This document shows, in pieces, positions 28,621-51,905 of a stretch of DNA of 64,000 nucleotides (positions within the stretch are counted from its first letter, which is position 1; each line of letters opens with the position of its first letter). This DNA comes from Gammaproteobacteria bacterium (GTDB lineage: Bacteria > Pseudomonadota > Gammaproteobacteria > UBA4575). The translations under genes were made by a program, and so were the position numbers. The notes below the pieces were generated by a model. That model was not told the origin of the DNA. It did no database searches and was given only the letters and a program-made list of their open reading frames with translations. The stretch covers positions 2,108,863-2,172,862 of the forward strand of contig OZ252002.1 of NCBI GenBank assembly GCA_965247265.1, written 5' to 3'.

Positions 28621-29184
28621 ATGAGCCTAAAAATAGAAAAATTGCGTGACCACCTTGAGGGTGACTATCCCGTTGATGTAATTGGCATTTATATCAACCG
28701 TAGAGGTGTGCGAATACAGTATCGTGAAAAATCTGGTGATGACTCATTTGATCGAAAACTTCGCAAGGCCCAATTAATTGAATCAGTAGGGTCTTTCATG
28801 AAAAAGGCTGCCTATATGGATGCCAATCTCGATCGTAATAGCAAAATGATGTTGCAACTTGAAAGTAGTGAGGTAGCCATTACCATTCAACGCGTCTCTA
28901 GTAATTCAGTTATACAAACCCCGGATGAATATCGAATACGCGAAGATGTTGTGCGCAATACAGAAGAACAGTATATTTTTGCCACAAAATACTTTTCAAT
29001 TGATTGTAAAGACGTGGCAGAACATACAGCAGAAACTCTAAAAAAATATACATGTGCAGAAAGCCAAAAAAAATATATTTTAGAATTGCAACATCTCGGT
29101 GCGTCTAATCAATACACCGCCTACGCAACGTTTCACACAGACAATTCATATTCAGCCATCATGTCATCCGAATTATTTAACTAG
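28621..29184 (+). CDS. hypothetical protein
   Basis: ORF only; no recognisable motif. Confidence 0.35.
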   Translation: MSLKIEKLRDHLEGDYPVDVIGIYINRRGVRIQYREKSGDDSFDRKLRKAQLIESVGSFMKKAAYMDANLDRNSKMMLQLESSEVAITIQRVSSNSVIQTPDEYRIREDVVRNTEEQYIFATKYFSIDCKDVAEHTAETLKKYTCAESQKKYILELQHLGASNQYTAYATFHTDNSYSAIMSSELFN

Positions 29185-32072
29185 CTGCTGCTAAGAGTTT
29201 TCTTACCGAAGGTTTTGCAATTCTGAACTCTGAAGATTCAAAAAACTCTTGAATCGGTATTGGTCGGTCAGAGTGAAATCCTTGTGCATAATCAACACCA
29301 ATAACTTTGAGCACATCCAGAATTTATTCATTTTCTACATATTCCGCAATGGTCTGCTTACCTAATACATGGCCCATGTCATTAATAGCATTCACCATCG
29401 CTCTGCTTACATCATCATGATGAATATCTTTTACAAACATGCCATCTATTTTTAAGTAGTCTACAGGCAGGGTTTTTAAATATGCGAAAGAAGATAACCC
29501 TGCACCAAAATCATCAAGCGCAAAATAGCAACCCAAGTCTTGAGCTTTTGCATAAAAGCAGTTGCTTGATTTAGATTGGCGATAGCTGCTGTTTCAGTTA
29601 TCTCAAAACAAATTTTACTTGGCTGTATCTTGTATTCTTTTAATTTTGCCACAATAAATGGCAAAACCCTTCTGATACCAGCGATTGTCCCGATAAATTA
29701 ATAGAGCATTTATCAATTTGCATAAGCACATTTGGATTCTCGGCGAGCAGTCTAAGCACATGATTTAAAATCCATCGATCAAGTTTAGGCGCTCTGTTAT
29801 AGCGCTCAACCGCTGGCAAAAATGCATTAGGAGGGACTAGTCGCCCAGACTCATCCTTCATGCGTATTAGAATTTCAAATGCATTTTTATCAACCTGAAT
29901 ATTTCTATTAGATTTTATATTGATTATTGATTGGGCAGTAACAACTAATTTTCCTTCATTTAAAGCCTTGTCAAATCGTTGCAACCACCTTTCTTGTCCT
30001 CGTCGCCGATTAATATCAATATCGCCTTCTCTAAATATTCTAACGCAATTTCTACCTGACTCTTTAGCTAAATAACAAGCACTATCAACGGATGACAATA
30101 CATATGAAATATCAAAACATCTTGAATTTATTTCAGCAACTCCAATACTTGCTTCAATATTGAAGCTCTTTTGTTCCCATATAAACTTATATTCTTGAAT
30201 TGTTTTTAAGATTTCATGTGCTTTTTCTTCAGCTCGCGTTAAATTACAGGCTGGCAGTAATAAAGCAAATTCATCCCCTCCAATTCGCGTGAGAATATCT
30301 GAATCTCTAAGACTACTATTAACTAAGTTACTAAATTGAATTAATAACTCATCACCAGCAGCATGACCATATAAATCATTAATCATTTTAAATCGATCTA
30401 AATCAATATAAATTAGCGAACTAATTTGCTTCATGGTTTTAGCATCAAGTATTGCTTTTCTAACTTTACGTTCGAACTCAGATCGATTAATTAATCTTGT
30501 TAAGGAATCATGACTTGCTTGATATCGCAAACGTCTGGCAAGTGTTCTAAGATTGGTTACATCGTTCATTACCAACACTGCACCATATATTTTCCCTGTT
30601 TGAGAAATTAGCGGTGTAGCAATAACTTGAACAGTAAATTTTGCGCCTGCTTTAGTGACAATATCTGCATGTACTTTTTGATTACTTTTTGCTCGTCCAG
30701 ATAAGCATGAAAGCACAGGGTTTGAAATGTGAATATCAGATTCTTCATTATACAAACTCAGTATTTTGTCAATATGCTTTCCTCGAGCTTCACGCTCTGA
30801 GCAATTTAAAAATCGACTTGCCGCTTCATTAATGTACTGCACTTCGCCTCGCTCATTAGTGGTTAATACCGCATCCACAATAGAGCGTAATGTAGCGACC
30901 ACTTTATCTTTCTCATTGGCTAACTGAGCTTGAGATTGCTTTTGAAGATGTATATCACTAATAGAACCGACAATTTTGGCAACATTCCCCGTGTAGTCGT
31001 AATTTGCATTTCCACCAATTATAAACCAACGATAACCTTTACCCTTAACAGCCAAGCGAGTTTCATGGGACAGATTTTGTCGTTTATTCTCAAGAAACGT
31101 CGCCCATGAACTACTAAAAGCTGTACGATCATCTGGATGAATTAATTTTTTGAAGCTGTGCAAGTCCTAAATCGCATTCGTCAGGAACGAGCCCTAATAA
31201 CTCATACATGGGCTCGGACCACCACTCTTTACCCTCTAATCCTGCTTGCCATTCCCAAATGCCTTCTTGTGCGCCTTGAATCGCATTTTCAAATTTAACT
31301 TCACTTTCTTTAAGCGCTTCTTCTACTTTTGAGCCTGAAGTGTAATCAGTAAAAGTCCAAACCAAAAATGATCCATTAATTTTTCGTACCAGCTTAATAT
31401 TAACTAGCAACCACAAATTATTTCTATTCCAACGATTCCCACTATTTGATTTTGCTGAAAGTTTATAATCTTTTACAAATCCCTGATCTACTAACAACTT
31501 ATTTATTTTCTAATTGTTTGCGGATCTGTGAAAACATTTCGCAACCTTGCATTTTTTTCTTTTCCAGGAACGATATTTAACATGCGCATTGCCATTTGAT
31601 TCATGACAATGACTTTGTCACTATTATTTTGAGTAACACAAACCGATACAGGTATTGCATCAATAAAATTCGACCAACGCTCTGTTATCGATGCTTTAGC
31701 ACTTGAATTATTTTCAACATCTTTACTGCTATCTATTGCGTACTGAATACTTTCAATGCGAATAGCTTTACTTCCCTTATCTAAATAATATTTCCACTCA
31801 AAATTGCAACCATTAACATTATTTGCAGCCACTACAACATCGCCACTATGAAGCGCGCGATTAATTAATTCAAAATGGTCACCGGGAAGAAATCGGTTTA
31901 ATTTTGCTAGTTTTAATGTATTCAGTAACAATCGAGAAGATTCATTAGCTTTAATAATTCTTCCATCAAATCGGCATACGAGTTCAAGGGGGCCTGAATC
32001 ATCAGATCGACTTGAGATGTTCGATACAAGTTTTTTGATATTGCGAAAATGCGCTTGAGAACTGCTAGACAT
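29177..32072 (-). pseudogene. PAS-PAS-GGDEF-EAL c-di-GMP signalling protein, broken into at least 5 frames
   Basis: Fragments in order: ORFs 31503..32072, 31129..31497 and 29640..31163 (PAS, 'GGDEF', start of EAL), 29476..29664 ('EITE'), 29324..29536 ('ALDDFGAG', 'YLKIDG'), and an unlisted last frame ending 29177 ('GVDYAQGF'). Confidence 0.7.
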
Positions 32073-37481: not shown

Positions 37482-37850
37482 TTATATTTTGAACACTCGA
37501 GTATTGCTACCGTTAATAGCACTTTTTAAATAGTGCGAGATATGCTTCTCGCCTTTTTTCCCGTTACTTAAAAACCCAATCTCTTGATGAAACTGTCGTT
37601 GCTTTACAAATGCTATGACTAGAGATATGAAAAATAACCCAGATATGATAAAAGGCACTGGTGGAATTTCCTCAATCCACCGATACCATTCAAGCACGGT
37701 GAAAATAAATAGCATTCCACTTATTAAATAGTACGGTCGAAACTGATCGCTCAGCTTTAACTGTATTGTTTGATCAATTATTTGACTATCGGCGCTACTA
37801 TTTTGAAATTGCCCGACTTCATTTGTAGCAGCCATATTAGCTTTCGCCAT
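37482..37850 (-). CDS. membrane protein, function unknown
   Basis: two transmembrane segments. Confidence 0.35.
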   Translation of the reverse strand: MAKANMAATNEVGQFQNSSADSQIIDQTIQLKLSDQFRPYYLISGMLFIFTVLEWYRWIEEIPPVPFIISGLFFISLVIAFVKQRQFHQEIGFLSNGKKGEKHISHYLKSAINGSNTRVFKI

Positions 37851-38001: not shown

Positions 38002-38892
38002 TTACCGCATTACGGTCACTGATGAGCGATCAAAAATATCGGTATATTTTTTCATAAACTGTTCGGCTAATGACTCCGCTTCATTCAATTCAAAATAATC
38101 CATATTTGCTGCATGATGCTCTCGCCGATAACTCCCAAATGGCGGATTTTGTGCAACGGCTGTTGCAGCCCGCGCGTAAGCCTGCATTTTATTTTGCGCT
38201 ACGCCAATACCTTGAGAATATACTTCACTTAACGCAAATTGTGCAGGTATGTGCCCTTTTCGAGCTGCGTTCAGTAAGCGAATTTGAATTTCTGAGTTAA
38301 ACTCAAGATCTTCACTTGCTTTATTAAGCTCTTGCTTGAACCCGTTTGTAGCAACTAGTTTATTCCCTGAATTGACATTTGATTTTTTTGGATCGTTATT
38401 GCTGTTTTCAATTTCTTTATCTGCAATTTGTTGCTTTGTATGTTTATTATTACTCAAGTCCATCGCATAAATAAATACAGCTAACCCATAGTTTGCTTGT
38501 TTGCTTCCGAGCTCTGCCGCCTGTTGCATTAATCTATAAGAAGTTGCATAGGTCTCATCAAACTTTAATGGATATACCTGATTACCTTCAAATACTTGCC
38601 CATTATCTACTTCAAGATCACATCCAATACAAAAATAACAAACGCTGGTCTGATATATTCTACTTGCTGTATCGAACGAATCATCTGAAGTCTGATTTAC
38701 ATCGGCAACGCATTGTTCAATATTTTTTATATCAATAGATTGTGCAATTGAGGATAAAACCGCATCTCCGGACGTGGCTGCTAACAATGAGCCAACTAAT
38801 AAATTAATACCAATTAAGGTGATTAACGATTTTGAAAAGTAATTCTGTGTCGTTGCATAAAACATCTTCATAACGTATTCCCGAAATAGCAA
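38002..38892 (-). CDS. secreted Sel1-repeat protein
   Basis: signal peptide; 'AQFALSEVYSQGIGVAQNKMQAYAWARAA' Sel1-like repeats. Confidence 0.5.
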   Translation of the reverse strand: MLFREYVMKMFYATTQNYFSKSLITLIGINLLVGSLLAATSGDAVLSSIAQSIDIKNIEQCVADVNQTSDDSFDTASRIYQTSVCYFCIGCDLEVDNGQVFEGNQVYPLKFDETYATSYRLMQQAAELGSKQANYGLAVFIYAMDLSNNKHTKQQIADKEIENSNNDPKKSNVNSGNKLVATNGFKQELNKASEDLEFNSEIQIRLLNAARKGHIPAQFALSEVYSQGIGVAQNKMQAYARAATAVAQNPPFGSYRREHHAANMDYFELNEAESLAEQFMKKYTDIFDRSSVTVMR

Positions 38893-40938: not shown

Positions 40939-41409
40939 CTACGTCACACTTTTTACGTCATTTTTTAAAGATGAACTATTATCAATTGGTATTGCGTACG
41001 CCTGATGTATTATTTTCGGCCAACGAGAGTACCAAGCATTTTCCTGCTCAGGCTCTATTGTTACTACATACACGCGTTGCTCATATTTATAATGCGCAAT
41101 GAGCCCTTGCAAGCACTGCCCCTTTATTAAATCAAACCAATGATTCGTACCATCGTATGATTTTTCCATAAATGATTTAACTGGTACCTTTACTGGTTTT
41201 GGCAACCATCGATCCCATTGCCCTTTATATATGGTTTCTAATCTAGCCCAACCCCCTAATGGGAGCTTACCCTTTTGCTGTTTACGTCTCCCCCACGGCA
41301 CAAGTATTAAATTATTTGATTTTGTAATTACAGGAAGCGTTGCAATTGGATTATGAAAATACACACGTTGGTCATTATTCTCATAAGAATATAATATTGC
41401 ACTACTCAT
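40939..41409 (-). CDS. unknown protein translationally coupled to dinB (third gene of the SOS cassette)
   Basis: ATGA start/stop overlap at 41406-41409 (start at the internal Met of ORF 40939..41439); no recognisable domain. Confidence 0.4.
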   Translation of the reverse strand: MSSAILYSYENNDQRVYFHNPIATLPVITKSNNLILVPWGRRKQQKGKLPLGGWARLETIYKGQWDRWLPKPVKVPVKSFMEKSYDGTNHWFDLIKGQCLQGLIAHYKYEQRVYVVTIEPEQENAWYSRWPKIIHQAYAIPIDNSSSLKNDVKSVT

Positions 41410-42626
41410 ACTGTTTTGCGGTGCCCATCTGGCTTCCATGCAGGTGCAATAACATTTGGCATATCTGAACGATGCAATAAATTTGCAGGTGCCAGTGTGA
41501 ATTCACCGTAACGTTCGTTAATTTGATCCATTGCTGAATTAATTTGATCACGCTTTACATCCTGCTTGCTAAATAATGAAAATTGGTGGCTTTTATTTTT
41601 TGGATCTAGGGCAGTAATTTGCACCTGGAAACAACCTTGGCCTTGCCAATAATTACACAACAAACCATTTGCGAGTGCTTTGATTTTATAACTGTCATCT
41701 GTAGGCTCTTGCGTTTTTAATTTTTTAGCCAACCATCCTTGTTCGGTTAAAAAACCTATAAAGAAATATTGTGCTTCAAACCTGTGTTTGCGCAAGCGCG
41801 TGGCCACCTTTTCTGCCATATGGTGCAGATACGCTTTTAAAGTTTTTAGATCTTTTGTATTTGGTGGCATTACTTTGCCATGCCCAATCGATTTGGGTGC
41901 AGGAATAGTTTGTTGTAATGGTTCAGGGTCTAAACCTTGCGCCATATACCAGATTCGCCGACCGGGATTACCAAAGCGCCTGGCAAGCTCACCGATGGGC
42001 AACTTCTCCATATCACCACAAACATAAACACCTCGGTCTTCCAAATACTTGCCTATCCCTTTGGAAATGCCACATAATTCTGTTACAGAGATACCTTTTA
42101 AATAATCTCTAGATTCCCAGGGAGGTATGACAACCAAGCCATCGGGCTTGTCGCGCTTCGCGGCATGTTTAGCGGTAGTTTTATCACCGCTAATTCCAAC
42201 ACTGCAGGGCACTTCCCCTGTATCGTAAACGACATCTTTAACTAGCTTTCCAATATTCGCAGGATTGCCATAAATACCTTGGCAATGCGTAATATCAAGA
42301 AATGCCTCATCAACCGAAAAAACTTCAATATCAGGCGTAATGTTTTGTAACGCAGACATAATATTAGTAGAGGCCTCTGCGTAACGATAAGGTCTAGCCG
42401 GAACCTGGACGACCTCAGGACATAATTGCAAAGCTTGCTTGAGCCGTGTGCCTGTTTTAATTCCATATTGCCTTGCTTCGTAAGAGCACGTAATAAAACA
42501 AGTGCCTGTTAAGCCGTTTGTAATGCCGATAGGTCTACCACGTAATTCTGGATAATCATGCTGCTCAATACTGGCAAAGAATGCATCCATATCGATTAAC
42601 ACAATGGCGCGATCCCAACGTTTCAT
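41406..42626 (-). CDS. dinB: Y-family DNA polymerase (DinB/Pol IV-like) with intact catalytic residues
   Basis: 'LIDMDAFFASIE' and 'SVDEAFLDIT' catalytic Asp/Glu motifs; 406 aa; lies 3 bp after lexA. Confidence 0.8.
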   Translation of the reverse strand: MKRWDRAIVLIDMDAFFASIEQHDYPELRGRPIGITNGLTGTCFITCSYEARQYGIKTGTRLKQALQLCPEVVQVPARPYRYAEASTNIMSALQNITPDIEVFSVDEAFLDITHCQGIYGNPANIGKLVKDVVYDTGEVPCSVGISGDKTTAKHAAKRDKPDGLVVIPPWESRDYLKGISVTELCGISKGIGKYLEDRGVYVCGDMEKLPIGELARRFGNPGRRIWYMAQGLDPEPLQQTIPAPKSIGHGKVMPPNTKDLKTLKAYLHHMAEKVATRLRKHRFEAQYFFIGFLTEQGWLAKKLKTQEPTDDSYKIKALANGLLCNYWQGQGCFQVQITALDPKNKSHQFSLFSKQDVKRDQINSAMDQINERYGEFTLAPANLLHRSDMPNVIAPAWKPDGHRKTV

Positions 42627-42629
42627 TTC

Positions 42630-43220
42630 TCATGTATACATTCTCACTTGACCAACTAATACGCCTTGTATTGTGATGCGGTCAGCCGAATAATCTTTGG
42701 GTTGCATATTCCTATTCGCAGGAACCAAACGAATAATATCTTTGCTAAGAAATTTAATTCTCTTTAGTGTTGCTTCATGGTCATCAACAAGCGCGACAAC
42801 AATTTGGTTATTACGTGCAGTATTGGATTGTTCAATAATAACGAGATCCCCACTACGAATGCCTTCATCTATCATGGAATGGCCTTTAACTTGTAATACA
42901 TAGCGATTAGAACCACCTAACAAGTGTGCAAAACTAATAAGTTCACGATCCTCAATCGCCTCAATAGGTTTTCCTGCAGCAATGCGCCCAAGTAGAGGTA
43001 ATTCATCGTAATCAGGATGATCAACGAGCTCTATGCCACGGTGCCTTTGATGTCGCCGAATATATCCCTGCTCTTCCAGAACTGATAAATACCTATGAAC
43101 CACACCTTTAGACTGAATGCCCAAGCCCTCAGCAATCTCCGTCAGTAAAGGCGCCTTGCGGTATCTAAGGAGGTAATCCGCTATAAATCGCAGTGTGGTT
43201 TGTTCTCGCTCAGTTAGCAT
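42630..43220 (-). CDS. lexA: LexA repressor
   Basis: 'RIAAGKPIE' Ala-Gly self-cleavage site, 'GHSM' Ser and 'LKRI' Lys of the S24 peptidase domain, N-terminal helix-turn-helix. Confidence 0.85.
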   Translation of the reverse strand: MLTEREQTTLRFIADYLLRYRKAPLLTEIAEGLGIQSKGVVHRYLSVLEEQGYIRRHQRHRGIELVDHPDYDELPLLGRIAAGKPIEAIEDRELISFAHLLGGSNRYVLQVKGHSMIDEGIRSGDLVIIEQSNTARNNQIVVALVDDHEATLKRIKFLSKDIIRLVPANRNMQPKDYSADRITIQGVLVGQVRMYT

Positions 43221-44379: not shown

Positions 44380-44422
44380 TACAACAACTCTGTAACTAGA
44401 TCTGCTGCGCTTTTAAGATCAT

Positions 44423-45566
44423 TTATCTGCAATTCAAATGCAGGAATGTCGGGATCCACGCAATTAACTCAGTGACCGTATTTGTGTTTAATGTCTGACC
44501 TGTGTAATAGCCTGCTTTTGTCAAACGCACTAAAGCCTCAGCAGATGATATTTTCTCGATGTGCGTATCAAATTCTTGTGAGTAAACAGGAAACACAATA
44601 GCTTTGACAGGTTCACCATATTTAATTGATTATTATTGGGTAAATTGCAAGGTTGTATATATTTAACAACCTTATCATCCTGCCTCAAATGAATAGGCAT
44701 ATCGGTGATACTTGGTAAGAATTCTTCAATGACATCCCAACTTCCTTCTTTAAGACCGATAACGCCTGGTGCTGGACGAATTTTTTTATCGTGCGTCAGA
44801 ATTGATACTTCGTCTGTAAATACTTTTTTCCTAAGCACATCAGCGCTGCCACTAATGTAGATTTTCCACTACCTGGACTTCCACTTAAAAGCACAACACC
44901 ATTATCATCTGAAATTGCGCCGGCATGAAATACTGAAAGATTATCAGCCTCTTGGTAACCTGTGATTAAAATAAACGCATTGGTAATTGGAGCTATTTCA
45001 TTCAGAGAATCACATGTAGCGAGCACTTTACCCAATTTAATAAATTCAAAACGATTTCCAACTTCAAGTATAGTAATATTATGCATTCGTGAAGAGCTAT
45101 CTGTCTCTTTCAAATGAGAAACTATCGGAGTTACAACCTTTAGGATAGACACACTTGATGCATTAATACAAAATGTTGAATCCAAGTATTGAAAAGTTCC
45201 ACAGTGAAATGAATGAATTTTATCTACATTTAATTTTGACTTATTTTTTAGATTAAATAATTTTTCATCATCAGCTAAATTATTTGCAATTTTTTTATCA
45301 CCAATAAATCCTAAATTAAGCCACTCTTCAAATATCAGCGACACATCAGATATAATCTCTTCTTTTAACAAACCATATTTTTTAGATATACATTTTGTTA
45401 TCTCATCAATTGATAGTTCTTGCTCATGCAGATTCCAAATCTCTGAAGCTGTTTGATTCAGTAATGCCAGTTCCTTCGAATAATCGTCAAACAGAATCAG
45501 CTCATTTTCGATTGAGAATGATCTGATTGCCCTATTTTGATGTGGGTATGTAGGCAAACAATCCAT
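44423..45566 (-). pseudogene. PqqD-like RRE fused to an HPr-kinase-C-like (lasso-peptide kinase-like) domain, with at least 2 frameshifts
   Basis: N-terminal 'ELILFDDYSKELALLNQTASEIWNL' (PqqD/RRE); P-loop 'LLSGSPGSGKSTL' (HPrK C-terminal domain). Reading frame changes near 44800-44840 and 44530-44600 and continues to the TAA at 44423. Confidence 0.6.
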
Positions 45567-45642
45567 TTGAGTAAGCTTTATGATAGTCCGTTATTAAACG
45601 GTAAAGATCATAGCAAATGGAATATAGAAAATAAGAGAATGA

Positions 45643-45668
45643 GTGCACGATATGAGTATCGTGTACAT
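45643..45668 (-). terminator. hairpin between the small peptide genes and the RRE-kinase gene (candidate attenuator/terminator)
   Basis: TGCACGATA-tgag-TATCGTGTA inverted repeat followed by a T-rich tract on the minus strand. Confidence 0.35.
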
Positions 45669-45764: not shown

Positions 45765-46001
45765 CTAACTGCAATAACCTTTTGCCCTCGCTACTGCCTG
45801 TTCTACAAAATTTCCACTGCATGAAGTAGTTTGAGTCGTTTGCACGGTATTATTACCATCAGTCCCATTAATAGATTCTGCAAATACTTTGCCGCTTGGT
45901 TGGCTCATAAGCAATAACGCTGGTGGCGTGTAAACTGCAAATTTACCAGCTGACTTCAAGAATTTGCGTCTTGTATTAATATCAGTGGATTTATTACCCA
46001 T
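45765..46001 (-). CDS. small precursor-like peptide A (78 aa), Tat/leader-like N-terminal region, C-terminal Ser
   Basis: 'TRRKFLKSAGKFAVYTPPALLLMSQPSGKVFA' is shared with its neighbour; the 37-aa tail has 2 Cys and ends '...GYCS'; RBS AAGGA is 9 nt before the internal Met (4th residue of ORF 45765..46010), preferred start. Confidence 0.5.
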   Translation of the reverse strand: MGNKSTDINTRRKFLKSAGKFAVYTPPALLLMSQPSGKVFAESINGTDGNNTVQTTQTTSCSGNFVEQAVARAKGYCS

Positions 46002-46053
46002 AGGTACCATCCTTAGTTGCTACTGTTTAGAAACAATAAAGTTTCAATTTAAT

Positions 46054-46287
46054 TTACGAGAATAATCTCCTCAAAATTCTATAAATTATACTGCCATCAT
46101 ATTGGTGATCTCCAGTATGCTCACCATCGGTATATCCACCGGTTTTTTTAAATGTGGCATGGCTAGGCTTATTCATTAACATTAATGCAGGTGGTGTATA
46201 TACTGCAAACTTTCCTGCTGTTTTAAGAAATTTTCGTCTCGATTCAGTCTTATTTGAATTTGAATCATTGTTTTTATTTGTATCCAT
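46054..46287 (-). CDS. small precursor-like peptide B (77 aa), paralogue of A with a divergent C-terminal tail ending in Ser
   Basis: 'SRRKFLKTAGKFAVYTPPALMLMNKPSHA' is conserved; the tail 'TFKKTGGYTDGEHTGDHQYDGSIIYRILRRLFS' is unrelated to A; RBS GGAGG is 8 nt before ATG(MDTNK). Confidence 0.5.
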   Translation of the reverse strand: MDTNKNNDSNSNKTESRRKFLKTAGKFAVYTPPALMLMNKPSHATFKKTGGYTDGEHTGDHQYDGSIIYRILRRLFS

Positions 46288-46781
46288 ACGGATATCCTCC
46301 CTGTGATTTTTCCAGAACATATTAAATTTTAATAGTTTCAGCAAATAAATTTTGTGATCCTACGCACAACAAAAATTGCATTAAAAATACTGATTAATTG
46401 GTGATTTATTACGCTGAATATTATTAATATATTCTTTTCCACATCTTTCTACAAAGCTAATTATTATGACAAATTTGAATTTGGATCACGTTTTGTAAGG
46501 CACTGAATATCTATACTATTAAAGTACTCATATTTTGTAAAAATTATGTAGTTTTTTTACTTCTGATAAATATGTCCCTGACGTTTTTTATATTATATAA
46601 AAAACATGTTTATTTTTAATGAAATCTATCGATAGCTATTTGAAGAAATATGAAAATAAAACTGTTAATCGTATTGTTTAATGACAGTACGCGTTAAGAA
46701 TAATTTAATTGAAAATAAAGTTATATTAGTGGAGCTATATTCACTATTTTCGTAAAGATTCCATGAAATAAACGTGAATTT

Positions 46782-47412
46782 TAATAATCCTCCAAACCAT
46801 TTGTACGAATCGATTGAATTGCAATTATAGGGCTGCTCCCAATGGTGAGATCTTCGTTAAATTTATGTGAGTAGGAAAAATTAAAAAATAATTGCGAAAA
46901 ATCTATCCCGGCTGTACCTGCACCAAATACACTGGGAAATGTAGCGACAGGTGCAGGACCTGGTCCATCAGGATCAAAAGAAGCGGACCCACCGCTACTG
47001 CTGTAACTCGTATTTAATCCAACATTACCATATAAAGAAAAACCTATCGCATCTTTTTCAGAAATCCATTTATTAATTCCAAAGCTTGCAATTAAGAATA
47101 AATCATTACGGCTGTTTTGAGACGCAGGACCAATAGTAAATGCCCTCCTGCCCCATTTGCAAGACTCTCTGATGACGAATATCCTCGGTCGGGATGAAAC
47201 AATATTGTTCCTACGTCAAATTGATTGCCTATGAACACCATACCAGCAGGGTTTGTTGCAGCAGCCATTGTATCCAACGGTAATGCAGCGCCTGCACCAG
47301 CAAGTGCACGTGTTTTAATTCCTGTGCCGTGCGCAAAATATCCGTTTGTAGTATTTCCAATTACTGGAATGAATATTAAAAGCACTATCACATAGATATT
47401 ATTTAATTTCAT
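46782..47412 (-). pseudogene. FadL/TodX-family outer membrane protein, disrupted (frameshift near 47095, probably internally deleted)
   Basis: N-terminal ORF 47092..47412 has a signal peptide and 'TMAAATNPAGM'; a C-terminal beta-barrel region ending '...TNGLEDY*' is in another frame (46782..47090); the total is about half the length of FadL. Confidence 0.4.
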
Positions 47413-47449: not shown

Positions 47450-47996
47450 TTACCTCTTGGCTGTTACTTCATCAACTGAAGCTAATTCTGCTTCGTTCCC
47501 CCACTTAGTGCGTTCATGATTCACTACTGCAACCACTTCTACGTCACTTAGCTGTGCACCAAACCCTGGCATCGGTGATGGATAGTTAATCCCATCTATT
47601 TCTTTATCCTTTAAACCATTTAGAACAACATCTATATGATCACTTTTATCTTTACTTTATACTGTTTTATTTCCTGCAAGCGCTGGAAAGACTCCCGGTA
47701 ATCCTTGGCCATTAGCCTGATGACACGATGCACAATAGTTTCCATATATTTGTCCACCCAATGCATTATCCTCGTTTGTTGCGACCTTACTGAGTTCAGG
47801 ATTATTTTTTTCTTTTTGTGCTGCAACATTAGACTGATACGTACCATACTCCAAAACAAGATACCCGACAGCCCATGAAAAGATGATAAGACATAAGACC
47901 CATGCCCATGTTGGGATAGGAACAGGATTTTCAATTCGAATTGGTTCGAACTCATCACCAATACGACTGCTATATGCATTCGCTAAATAGAAAGAC
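47450..47996 (-). pseudogene. CcoP-like membrane-anchored monohaem cytochrome c; 5'-truncated and frameshifted
   Basis: 'ENPVPIPTWAWVLCLIIFSWAVGYLVL' (CcoP transmembrane segment 2-like) and 'CASCH' haem site in one frame; 'SPMPGFGAQLSDVEVVAVVNHERTKWGN' C-terminus in another frame (shift near 47650); no start codon before the transmembrane segment. Confidence 0.5.
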
Positions 47997-50157: not shown

Positions 50158-50188
50158 AATGTCCGCTTTGGGTCGATAGCGGTCATTT
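50158..50188. repeat. hairpin repeat copy 1
   Basis: AATGTCCGCT-TTGGGTCGAT-AGCGGTCATT. Confidence 0.7.
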
Positions 50189-50522
50189 ATTTATTAGCAG
50201 AAATCATTGCTACAGCATGGCTTGTTATCTCTTGATAAACCCCTTCCCCTCCTGGGAGGCTTAAATTTAAATTATGATCCCAATGTGAATTTTCATTTTG
50301 ATTTTCTAATGCTGCAAAGCTGATAGAAAAATTTGACTCTTTACCATCCCACACAAATAGTATTCTGCTATGCGGTTTTCCTAATTCCAACGTGAAACTT
50401 CCAAATACCATTGGGTAATACGAATGTCGGTATACGGCGATCCCAGATTCTCTTAATTCTTCTGCTATGAATAAGAGCGACTTTATATGTTCTATCGCTT
50501 GTTGTGAGATATTCATTACCAA
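50187..50522 (-). CDS. hypothetical protein bracketed by two copies of the hairpin repeat
   Basis: 111-aa ORF; repeat copies lie at 50158-50188 and 50536-50568. Confidence 0.35.
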   Translation of the reverse strand: MVMNISQQAIEHIKSLLFIAEELRESGIAVYRHSYYPMVFGSFTLELGKPHSRILFVWDGKESNFSISFAALENQNENSHWDHNLNLSLPGGEGVYQEITSHAVAMISANK

Positions 50523-51066: not shown

Positions 51067-51505
51067 AAGTAATCAGCTACCTTCATACACGGCTCCTGCG
51101 ATGTGAAAACCTTTTGCACTCACTGTTTTGGAAGCGTCAAGAAAATATAATTCGGTCTCTCCTTCTTGGACATGCGTTTTATCAGAATCTTGGTATTCCA
51201 TTATTGACGGATAGGCCCAGATTTCGATGGTGCTGCCATTGGGGACTTCATCCCAATAATTCTCGATTGCACCCCATATGGGTTGGCCTTGTTTAGTAAA
51301 AGTTTGTATACGACTTGGTTCCCCAAATTGAGCAGTAATCTCATCACGTGCGGCTCCCACATTGAAATCAGCGTGCATTGGTACAGGCACATCGTCACTA
51401 CATGAGACAATTAATACCATGAACGGGAGGATTAAAAAGTATTTAATGCTTCTTAATCTTTTTATTTTCATCTGTTGAGTCCTAATTCGTGATGAATTTA
51501 TATTT
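50985..51505. repeat. segmental duplication, copy A (thermonuclease 5' end + lipoprotein gene)
   Basis: ~85% identical at the nucleotide level to 58665..59200. Confidence 0.6.
51073..51471 (-). CDS. lipoprotein, copy 1 (paralogue at 58764..59162)
   Basis: lipobox 'VSC'; ~85% identical to the second copy. Confidence 0.5.
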   Translation of the reverse strand: MKIKRLRSIKYFLILPFMVLIVSCSDDVPVPMHADFNVGAARDEITAQFGEPSRIQTFTKQGQPIWGAIENYWDEVPNGSTIEIWAYPSIMEYQDSDKTHVQEGETELYFLDASKTVSAKGFHIAGAVYEGS

Positions 51506-51905
51506 AGAATTTGTGTTCTGTATCACTGGGAACTAAATCATCTGTGGTCCAACTTGAAACTTTACTCCAAGCTTCTTCTAATATTGTTTCCAAGTTGGTT
51601 TTGAGCTCCTGGATGGAGACTGAATTGATGATGGTTTCATGCTGCCATATATGATCGCGTTCTTCGAGTTGATACGCACAAATCCATAACGTCCAGGTAA
51701 GCTCCTTTTCGTTTTGAAGATAGATTTGTATCAATCTATGTAAACTATCCACCCAGCGTAATTCACGGTCCGGCCAGTTCTTGGTATTTTTGCCTAGTGG
51801 AATATCTTTACTACTTGCAAATTTCTCCAGTATTGGATCAAGGCTTTCCAATGGTTTTGCAAGTCTTACCCATTCCTCATCTGTTCCATGAAAACCATTT
51901 GCCAT
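51504..51905 (-). CDS. hypothetical protein
   Basis: ORF only. Confidence 0.35.
   Translation of the reverse strand: MANGFHGTDEEWVRLAKPLESLDPILEKFASSKDIPLGKNTKNWPDRELRWVDSLHRLIQIYLQNEKELTWTLWICAYQLEERDHIWQHETIINSVSIQELKTNLETILEEAWSKVSSWTTDDLVPSDTEHKF

Follow-up and report, generated by a model that had tools for sequence, protein, structure and literature searches.

Actinobacterial lasso precursors share a YxxPxL motif in their leaders, which bind the recognition element (RRE) of the B1 protein via a conserved hydrophobic patch (PMC6784204). Homologues of HPr kinase add a phosphate to the precursors of lasso peptides, and this phosphate is glycosylated in turn by a nucleotidyltransferase (PMC8498205). 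In bufferin precursors, the Sec signal peptide also appears to contribute to the sequence that the enzyme recognizes and may stay masked until the peptide is fully modified, an RRE-containing partner being thought to do the masking (PMC12452194). Here we analyzed a 64,000-nt stretch of a Gammaproteobacteria bacterium of the UBA4575 lineage (assembly GCA_965247265.1, contig OZ252002.1, positions 2,108,863 to 2,172,862; hereafter the window), which carries two tandem small genes on the minus strand (A and B), and downstream of them genes for a PqqD/RRE-kinase fusion and a PF14907 nucleotidyltransferase. The initial annotation had offered two alternatives for the peptides: export via the twin-arginine translocation (Tat) pathway, or precursors of peptides made on the ribosome and modified after translation (RiPPs). 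Each has found support (the Tat consensus of the leader, and an RRE enzyme gene downstream of 30 of 60 peptide genes, respectively), and the two are probably both true at once rather than exclusive. On balance, we lean towards A and B belonging to a large uncurated family of RiPP-like precursors, in which the N-terminal 40-45 residues would serve as Tat signal and maturation leader alike. Three features go beyond the initial annotation: i) YTPPAL in the peptides equals the YxxPxL bound by lasso B1 proteins; ii) the kinase gene of the window carries three frameshifts; and iii) a Ser/Thr at the junction of leader and tail is conserved.

The locus resembles several described systems in part. It shares with lasso tailoring (paeninodin PadeK; pseudomycoidin PsmK and PsmN; TfuB1 and TbiB1) a B1-like RRE, a YxxPxL leader and a kinase plus nucleotidyltransferase in the precursor operon, and the substrates of lasso kinases end in Ser, as do A and B. 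On the other hand, RRE and kinase form a single fused protein here, no cyclase or B2 protein was found in the ORFs scanned, the leader holds a Tat consensus and a signal-peptidase-like region, the junction Ser/Thr is conserved but not the Ser at the C-terminus, and many tails cannot form a lasso ring. With bufferins and oxazolins (MNIO-modified, with Sec signals) and with the lipoprotein-pathway RiPPs, it has in common an export signal that would double as maturation leader, so that no dedicated protease or exporter is needed. However, the signals of those peptides are of Sec or lipoprotein type while those of A and B are of Tat type, their enzymes (MNIO and DUF2063-RRE) are unrelated to the RRE-kinase and PF14907 protein found here, and their cores are metal-binding Cys motifs in contrast to the hypervariable tails of this family. 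The HPr-rel-A system (TIGR04352 kinase A plus TIGR04353 PqqD chaperone; uncharacterised) provides the nearest curated kinase family (TIGR04352 HprK_rel_A, E 8.5e-26) together with a PqqD partner, and its cassette presumably also includes a nucleotidyltransferase; yet the kinase half scored just 75-91 bits against a TIGR04352 cut-off of 200, and the PqqD half, which is fused here instead of separate, scored 17 bits on TIGR04353, below the cut-off of 35. Tat signals with proofreading of the TorD/DmsD type are alike in S-RR-x-FLK, a weakly hydrophobic stretch, a basic c-region, a candidate AxA-like site and a predicted cytoplasmic binder that acts before export, but here the passenger is a variable peptide of 25-60 residues, not a cofactor enzyme, and an RRE-kinase takes the place of the TorD-family binder. 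Neither a natural RiPP leader of Tat type nor any description of this HprK-related kinase and PqqD peptide system was found in the literature.

Genes A and B were confirmed at the coordinates of the initial annotation, which had read them as tandem small open reading frames (ORFs) with a shared RRKFLK(S/T) block and unrelated tails. The full-length products are MGNKSTDINTRRKFLKSAGKFAVYTPPALLLMSQPSGKVFAESINGTDGNNTVQTTQTTSCSGNFVEQAVARAKGYCS (A) and MDTNKNNDSNSNKTESRRKFLKTAGKFAVYTPPALMLMNKPSHATFKKTGGYTDGEHTGDHQYDGSIIYRILRRLFS (B), which can be segmented as MGNKSTDINT-RRKFLKSAGKFAVYTPPAL-LLMSQPSGKVFAES-INGTDGNNTVQTTQTTSCSGNFVEQAVARAKGYCS and MDTNKNNDSNSNKTES-RRKFLKTAGKFAVYTPPAL-MLMNKPSHATFKKT-GGYTDGEHTGDHQYDGSIIYRILRRLFS respectively. 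The common block is RRKFLK[ST]AGKFAVYTPPAL[LM]LM (T-RRKFLKSAGKFAVYTPPALLLM in A and S-RRKFLKTAGKFAVYTPPALMLM in B), and both copies contain YTPPAL. When cut at the sites that had been proposed (V-F-A|E-S in A and S-H-A|T-F in B, both compatible with A-x-A), A leaves a tail of 37 aa with two Cys and B an unrelated Gly/His/Asp-rich tail of 33 aa, as had been described; both tails end in Ser. The strong ribosome-binding sites (GGAGG for B, AAGGA for A) that had been noted at the Met codons were likewise found. The two leader blocks (57 nt each) differ at 14 positions, 12 of which are third codon positions, with one amino-acid change; thus their similarity reflects neither chance nor recent duplication of DNA. 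A near-identical homologue of A (P0001; 99%) was present in a Joint Genome Institute (JGI) metagenome.

Homologues were collected in three ways: a word-indexed protein search, scans for the sequence pattern in GTDB genomes and JGI metagenomes, and a hidden Markov model (HMM) search of 1.84 billion cluster representatives. The protein search returned eight relatives with the same N-terminal block and tails that were all different, while the pattern scans yielded 23 loci from GTDB genomes and 69 from JGI metagenomes, with 86 unique peptides. The exhaustive HMM search found 623 representatives (clusters of 50% identity) at E <= 1e-3 and 127 at E <= 1e-10; all 623 were 52-139 aa long and matched through their N-terminal ~50 residues. 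The conserved leader plus hypervariable core seen at first in two peptides therefore holds over hundreds of homologues. No Pfam or NCBIfam model covers them in scans of both libraries. (A metagenome scan anchored on the fusion-protein alignment keyed on the generic P-loop, with 600 stretches and 0 confirmed, and the peptide alignment was used instead.) Assigned host genomes were uncultured Gammaproteobacteria (Thiogranum, Thiohalobacter and other metagenome-assembled genomes, MAGs) and one Candidatus Accumulibacter.

Motif counts were taken from the top 150 of the 623 representatives. The leader, whose absence from homologues would have spoken against a precursor family, was kept in 145 of them in the form RR...A-x-Y-x-x-P-x-[LIVMFA]; among these 145 members, Ser preceded RR in 113 and FLK followed RR-x in 111. 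Past the anchor lies a semi-conserved stretch, M-L-[LM]-[MS]-K-P-S-x-A-x-[FI]-A-[KQ]-[ST]-G-G, and then the hypervariable tail (median 35 residues), the composition of which is very diverse: poly-Gly, HHGHHDGG repeats, SFKS repeats, Arg/Lys repeats, C-G-x-G-L-L-x-x-L-F-C loops, GGGWLQDLLNR and ...LRRFFS all occur. In the 19-codon leader block, pairwise comparison of 31 distinct genes gave mean nucleotide differences of 0.176, 0.057 and 0.617 for the first, second and third codon position respectively. Such an excess of third-position over second-position divergence argues for strong purifying selection on the translated sequence, and by this measure A and B are real genes, translated and under selection, in line with the initial annotation. 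An OmpA-like beta-barrel gene lies directly 5' of the peptide gene at three metagenomic loci (L003 4904-5461, L005 614-1207 and L004 1-240), whether the kinase is present or not.

The peptide genes were linked to one enzyme across genomes. Of 60 unique peptide genes for which the downstream sequence spans at least 900 nt, 30 have a PqqD-kinase gene downstream on their strand, no more than 600 nt away. A nucleotidyltransferase gene was also present in 10 of the 18 peptide loci with at least 2.5 kb of flank. It comes after the kinase gene at L005, L010, L014, L021, L023, L030, L034, L035, L038 and L045. About 80 fused PqqD-kinase homologues were found, and the named ones are annotated just as "PqqD family peptide modification chaperone". 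Three distant enzyme homologues (L033, L034 and L035; identities of 42%, 23% and 25%) each had one or two small ORFs upstream, with the architecture kept and the sequence drifted (SRRDFIKKAGKFAIYAPPAIMLM; ERRHFLAKSRYAVYMSPLMLSM and ERRIFLSKSKYATYMSPVMLSM; SRREALALVGKHAVYTAPAVLAVL). As peptides of the form RR...AxYxxPx[LVM] stand immediately upstream even at 23-42% enzyme identity, RR and A-x-Y-x-x-P-x-[LVM] travel with the enzyme; the anchor itself co-varies across loci (YTPPAL, YAPPAI, YMSPLM and YTAPAV). No alternative small ORF was seen in the cassettes. At the loci L036 and L037, which encode unfused HprK-like and PqqD proteins, there was no YxxPxL peptide and the context differs (PhyH, P450). 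Four peptide genes and one cassette were present in each of the two best-assembled genomes (OZ244982.1 and CBDCUI01), a ratio that matches, by analogy, the layout of one enzyme and many precursors in other RiPP families. At L035 (5531-5999) two tandem precursor genes with diverged leaders (ERRHFLAKSRYAVYMSPLM and ERRIFLSKSKYATYMSPVM) lie within a polysaccharide-export locus (Wzz, glycosyltransferases, Poly_export), a setting suggestive of some connection with the cell envelope.

The identity of the enzyme pointed to the same leader motif. A profile built from 47 fusion proteins had its best matches to solved structures in the lasso B1 RREs TfuB1 (6jx3, E 5.6e-11) and TbiB1 (5v1u, E 2.7e-10), and a weak match to HPr kinase (1jb1, E 0.019); single-protein sequence searches of the PDB gave nothing significant. 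The intact orthologue P0009 was modelled with AlphaFold2 (mean pLDDT 90); its first 90 residues superposed on the leader complexes of TbiB1 and TfuB1 with TM scores of 0.86-0.89 and root-mean-square deviations of 1.1-2.4 A, while the rest matched ATP-dependent phosphoenolpyruvate carboxykinase (PEPCK; E 2.9e-7, Foldseek) and HprK/P (3tqf, 2qmh). PEPCK and HprK/P belong to one fold superfamily. H215, G233-S-G-K-S-T238 and D253 were invariant across the 47 diverse fusions, and by analogy this His, P-loop and Asp would represent the catalytic set of HprK/P. The linked RRE matches Pfam PqqD at E 4e-9; the precomputed Pfam name on the kinase half is PF27840 ("ScmC"), for which the literature held unrelated acronyms only.

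The presence of Y-T-P-P-A-L in the peptides and of a B1-like RRE in the linked enzyme is the strongest argument for the peptides as its ligands, and most likely its substrates. No lasso cyclase or B2 protease domain was detected in the window ORFs within ~10 kb of the cassette and ten larger ORFs farther off, among ten ORFs scanned from L010 and L023, or in the Pfam-annotated loci L034, L035 and L038. Nor is a lasso core (N-terminal Gly/Ala/Ser/Cys plus Asp/Glu at 7-9) a feature of the family, in which poly-Gly, Arg/Lys-repeat and Pro-rich tails have no acidic residue in the right place. Thus, with no cyclase or B2 in the scanned ORFs and many tails unable to form the ring, the system is by comparison akin to the tailoring branch of lasso biosynthesis and not a lasso cluster.

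Several lines of evidence suggested export via Tat. S/T-RR-x-FLK is the textbook Tat consensus, and the peptides carry it as T-RR-K-FLK (A) and S-RR-K-FLK (B). All profile matches of the peptides were sub-threshold, and all were to Tat-signal models (TIGR01409, TIGR02811). Counting from the anchor, 114/145 members have Pro at +6; positions +7, +9, +10, +12 and +14 show an excess of small residues, and Lys is frequent at +5 and +13 of the c-region (144 representatives). Basic residues in the c-region are a feature of Tat "Sec-avoidance" signals; moreover, Tat can carry small unstructured hydrophilic passengers, and most of these tails are such. No protease, exporter or transporter gene occurs in the annotated cassettes (L034, L035 and L038), as would be expected if the general export and signal-peptidase machinery did both jobs.

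As candidate site of modification, the initial annotation had pointed to the C-terminal Ser. This residue ends 18/145 members only and is found in A, in B and in a ...LRxLFS sub-clade that includes B; it was therefore ruled out as a family-wide site. The tail end of B (...ILRRLFS) has cassette-linked counterparts at L038 (LRRFFS), L052 and L060 (ILRRFFS and LRRFFS) and L046 (FRSLFS). In contrast, a Ser/Thr exactly 14 residues past the YxxPxL anchor was found in 130/144 representatives (90%), and in 12 representatives it is the only Ser/Thr of the tail. An enzyme in which RRE and catalytic domain are fused would favour targets that lie at a constant distance from the docking site; we thus rank the junction Ser/Thr first among the possible sites, though it is still less likely than not to be the one.

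We infer the following model of how the enzyme binds and phosphorylates the peptides, which residue it targets, what the nucleotidyltransferase contributes, and how the peptides pass through Tat and are cleaved. In the cytoplasm, the lasso-B1-type RRE of the PqqD-kinase would bind A-x-Y-x-x-P-x-[LVM], which lies inside the hydrophobic region of the signal peptide. The tethered domain of HPr-kinase/PEPCK fold would then phosphorylate a hydroxyl residue, most likely the Ser/Thr 14 residues past the anchor, with the C-terminal Ser as an alternative target in one sub-clade. Where present, the PF14907 nucleotidyltransferase may extend the phosphate, by analogy with the phosphoglycosylation of pseudomycoidin. 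Release of the RRE would uncover S-RR-x-FLK for the Tat translocase, and signal peptidase I would cut in the P-S-x-A-x-F-A-x-S region, sending a hypervariable, mostly hydrophilic peptide of 25-60 residues into the periplasm. A single enzyme cassette would serve several scattered precursor genes.

It is quite possible, though we would not yet count on it, that these peptides form the first natural class of Tat-dependent RiPPs, with at least 600 clusters (at 50% identity) mostly in uncultured Proteobacteria, in which the RRE-kinase gates export until the Ser/Thr at fixed distance is phosphorylated and, at loci with the nucleotidyltransferase, decorated further, and in which the general Tat and signal-peptidase machinery replaces a dedicated protease and exporter. 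If so, the fusions annotated as peptide modification chaperones, so far without any substrate, would be assigned theirs, and export signals that double as RiPP leaders, so far of Sec and lipoprotein type only, would gain a Tat version. The family would then also point to a simple two- or three-gene route to exported phosphorylated, possibly nucleotidylated or glycosylated peptides of very diverse sequence, of His-rich, poly-Gly, highly basic amphipathic or Cys-looped type. Furthermore it raises the question of how a cell blocks the export of a signal peptide before the passenger has been modified, to which an RRE seated on the h-region is our proposed answer.

A number of observations weigh against this dual role of the leader, and some of them fit other explanations. 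As to export, the best TIGR01409 score was 13.9 bits (one homologue) against a cut-off of 16.7, A and B did not match it, and Pfam (PF10518) gave no match, so that the exact Tat motif claimed in the initial annotation stands as a motif while the curated Tat profiles stay below threshold. The uncharged stretch after the Lys (FAVYTPPALLLM...) comprises just 12-17 residues and includes Pro-Pro. A net charge of +8 or higher is reached by 33 of the 144 tails, and these may be less suited to Tat. Parity of Cys pairs as a sign of an oxidising compartment was also dropped: the first 34 peptides included 17 with two Cys vs 2 with one, but the 144 representatives 30 vs 29. Weak Tat scores, a short h-region with Pro-Pro and many extremely basic tails would suit RiPP precursors with a leader that merely looks like a Tat signal, RR and FLK being contacts of the RRE or kinase and the peptide staying cytoplasmic or leaving by another way, with an unlinked protease; so would a leader far more conserved than ordinary signal peptides, which points to protein binding. 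We consider this explanation unlikely, given the exact consensus S-RR-x-FLK in 111/145 members, the n-h-c layout with conserved Pro and small residues at AxA-like positions, and annotated cassettes free of protease or exporter genes; lasso B1 leaders, moreover, do not need RR (PMC6784204). The YxxPxL leader, the B1 proteins as best structural matches of the RRE, the kinase and nucleotidyltransferase pair known from paeninodin- and pseudomycoidin-type clusters, and an S/T-G-G junction that resembles the lasso T-x-G junction could instead mark true lasso precursors with their tailoring enzymes, the cyclase and B2 protease being encoded elsewhere. To this we give hardly any credence: neither an Asn-synthase-like cyclase nor a transglutaminase-like protease was among the scanned ORFs of the window, L010, L023, L034, L035 and L038, many tails (poly-Gly, Arg/Lys repeats) are without the Asp/Glu at 7-9 for ring closure, and RR-x-FLK is not in known lasso leaders.

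As to the enzyme, half of the peptide genes do not stand beside it and are orphans in unrelated neighbourhoods, and the whole-genome co-occurrence of peptide and enzyme rests on two MAGs. Peptide and PqqD-kinase genes stand without an adjacent PF14907 gene in a Thiogranum-like clade and at the Accumulibacter locus (L029, L032, L079, L091, L094, L095, L100 and L033, with tails that are His/Gly-rich or of the GNNGIGNG...PKPND type). The conserved junction Ser could be the -1 or +2 residue of the signal-peptidase site instead of a phospho-acceptor, and the kinase gene of the window has three single-base frameshifts, near 44825 (GGAAAAAAG), 44625 (TTAAAT) and 44452 (ATCCCG). The orphan genes would be natural if the peptides were ordinary small Tat-exported proteins that by chance neighbour a cassette acting on another substrate; such coincidence is very improbable in view of the same-strand adjacency in 30/60 loci, down to 23% enzyme identity and with the motif co-varying, of the match between the YxxPxL of the peptides and the B1-type RRE of the enzyme, and of cassettes that show no other small ORF. 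An RRE that would bind within the signal peptide, a nucleotidyltransferase dispensable in some clades and a lack of any universally conserved hydroxyl residue in the tail besides the junction one would also be expected if the fusion protein were a signal-peptide chaperone or ATPase, like TorD or DmsD, that times the export of unmodified peptides. That the fusion is such a timer is improbable: the His, P-loop and Asp are invariant in 47 diverse fusions, the constant spacing of docking motif and Ser/Thr in 90% of members is what a catalytic site on a tether would require, and among characterised proteins of peptide pathways its nearest relatives are true kinases (PMC8498205). We therefore keep a leader that serves both modification and Tat export as the preferred reading; the coordinates of its elements in the window are collected in Table 1.

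Table 1. Precursor genes, leader elements and enzyme genes in the window (positions count from its first nucleotide)
Feature	Position	Strand	Remarks
Precursor gene A	45765..46001	-	ATG at 46001, stop at 45765, 78 aa; ORF and translation
Precursor gene B	46054..46287	-	ATG at 46287, stop at 46054, 77 aa; ORF and translation
AAGGA ribosome-binding site of gene A	46010..46014	-	8 nt upstream of ATG; read from sequence
GGAGG ribosome-binding site of gene B	46296..46300	-	8 nt upstream of ATG; read from sequence
Leader block of A (RRKFLKSAGKFAVYTPPAL)	45915..45971	-	
Leader block of B (RRKFLKTAGKFAVYTPPAL): Tat-type S-RR-x-FLK, then YxxPxL	46183..46239	-	
Junction Ser43 of A (VFA-E-S)	45873..45875	-	14 residues past YxxPxL anchor
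Junction Thr49 of B	46141..46143	-	14 residues past YxxPxL anchor; candidate modification site or part of signal-peptidase site
PqqD/RRE-HPr-kinase-like P-loop kinase fusion gene	44382..45566	-	Pfam PqqD E 1.7e-7, TIGR04352 fragment match
PF14907 (NTP_transf_5) nucleotidyltransferase gene, intact, 350 aa	43327..44379	-	Pfam E 4.1e-29

The product of the kinase gene in the window opens with the PqqD domain, followed by a P-loop related to HprK-related kinase A. Its orthologues are ~397 aa long, and the intact L005 orthologue aligned to the gene in four pieces and three frames (tblastn, E 1e-88). Random sequencing error is an unlikely source of the three frameshifts, since two of them sit in runs of just three bases and eleven intact long housekeeping ORFs (16.4 kb) held 38 long homopolymers and 0 frameshifts. 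As the frameshifts cluster in the kinase gene and other accessory genes while long ORFs are intact, the sequence makes a recent pseudogene, not a sequencing artefact, the probable state of the kinase gene. With the kinase apparently inactivated, peptides A and B of this genome may at present be made, and perhaps work, in unmodified form; alternatively they may be relics, or the whole system may be in decay. The nucleotidyltransferase of the window scored 102.3 bits against a PF14907 cut-off of 31.2, and its G-[AS]...D-x-D motif reads KGAA...SDLDILV.

Just upstream of the peptide genes, on the minus strand, a gene for a FadL-like outer-membrane protein (porin) is truncated after 106 aa (47092-47412) and a cytochrome c gene is split in two frames (47450-47854); together with the lesions of the kinase gene they suggest local decay of accessory genes. 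No support was found for a terminator or attenuator in the interval from gene A to the kinase gene: the 7-bp hairpin there with a U-rich tract (45640-45663, minus strand) is weak (z = -1.19 vs shuffled), and a consensus scan found none on that strand. An Rfam scan of the window gave no match, and Pfam and NCBIfam had none for the ORFs of 110-300 aa near the cassette (40939-41439, 37482-37850, 38002-38892, 50187-50522 and 51073-51905, all on the minus strand). Farther off, a PAS-GGDEF-EAL gene (29177-31163, minus strand) falls into four or more pieces in different frames over its EAL domain and is a probable pseudogene. Directly past the nucleotidyltransferase gene lie genes for LexA and then a DinB-type (Pol IV) polymerase (41406-43220, minus strand), and two related MAGs keep this order downstream of their nucleotidyltransferase gene (L010 11554-13377 and L038 10775-12586).

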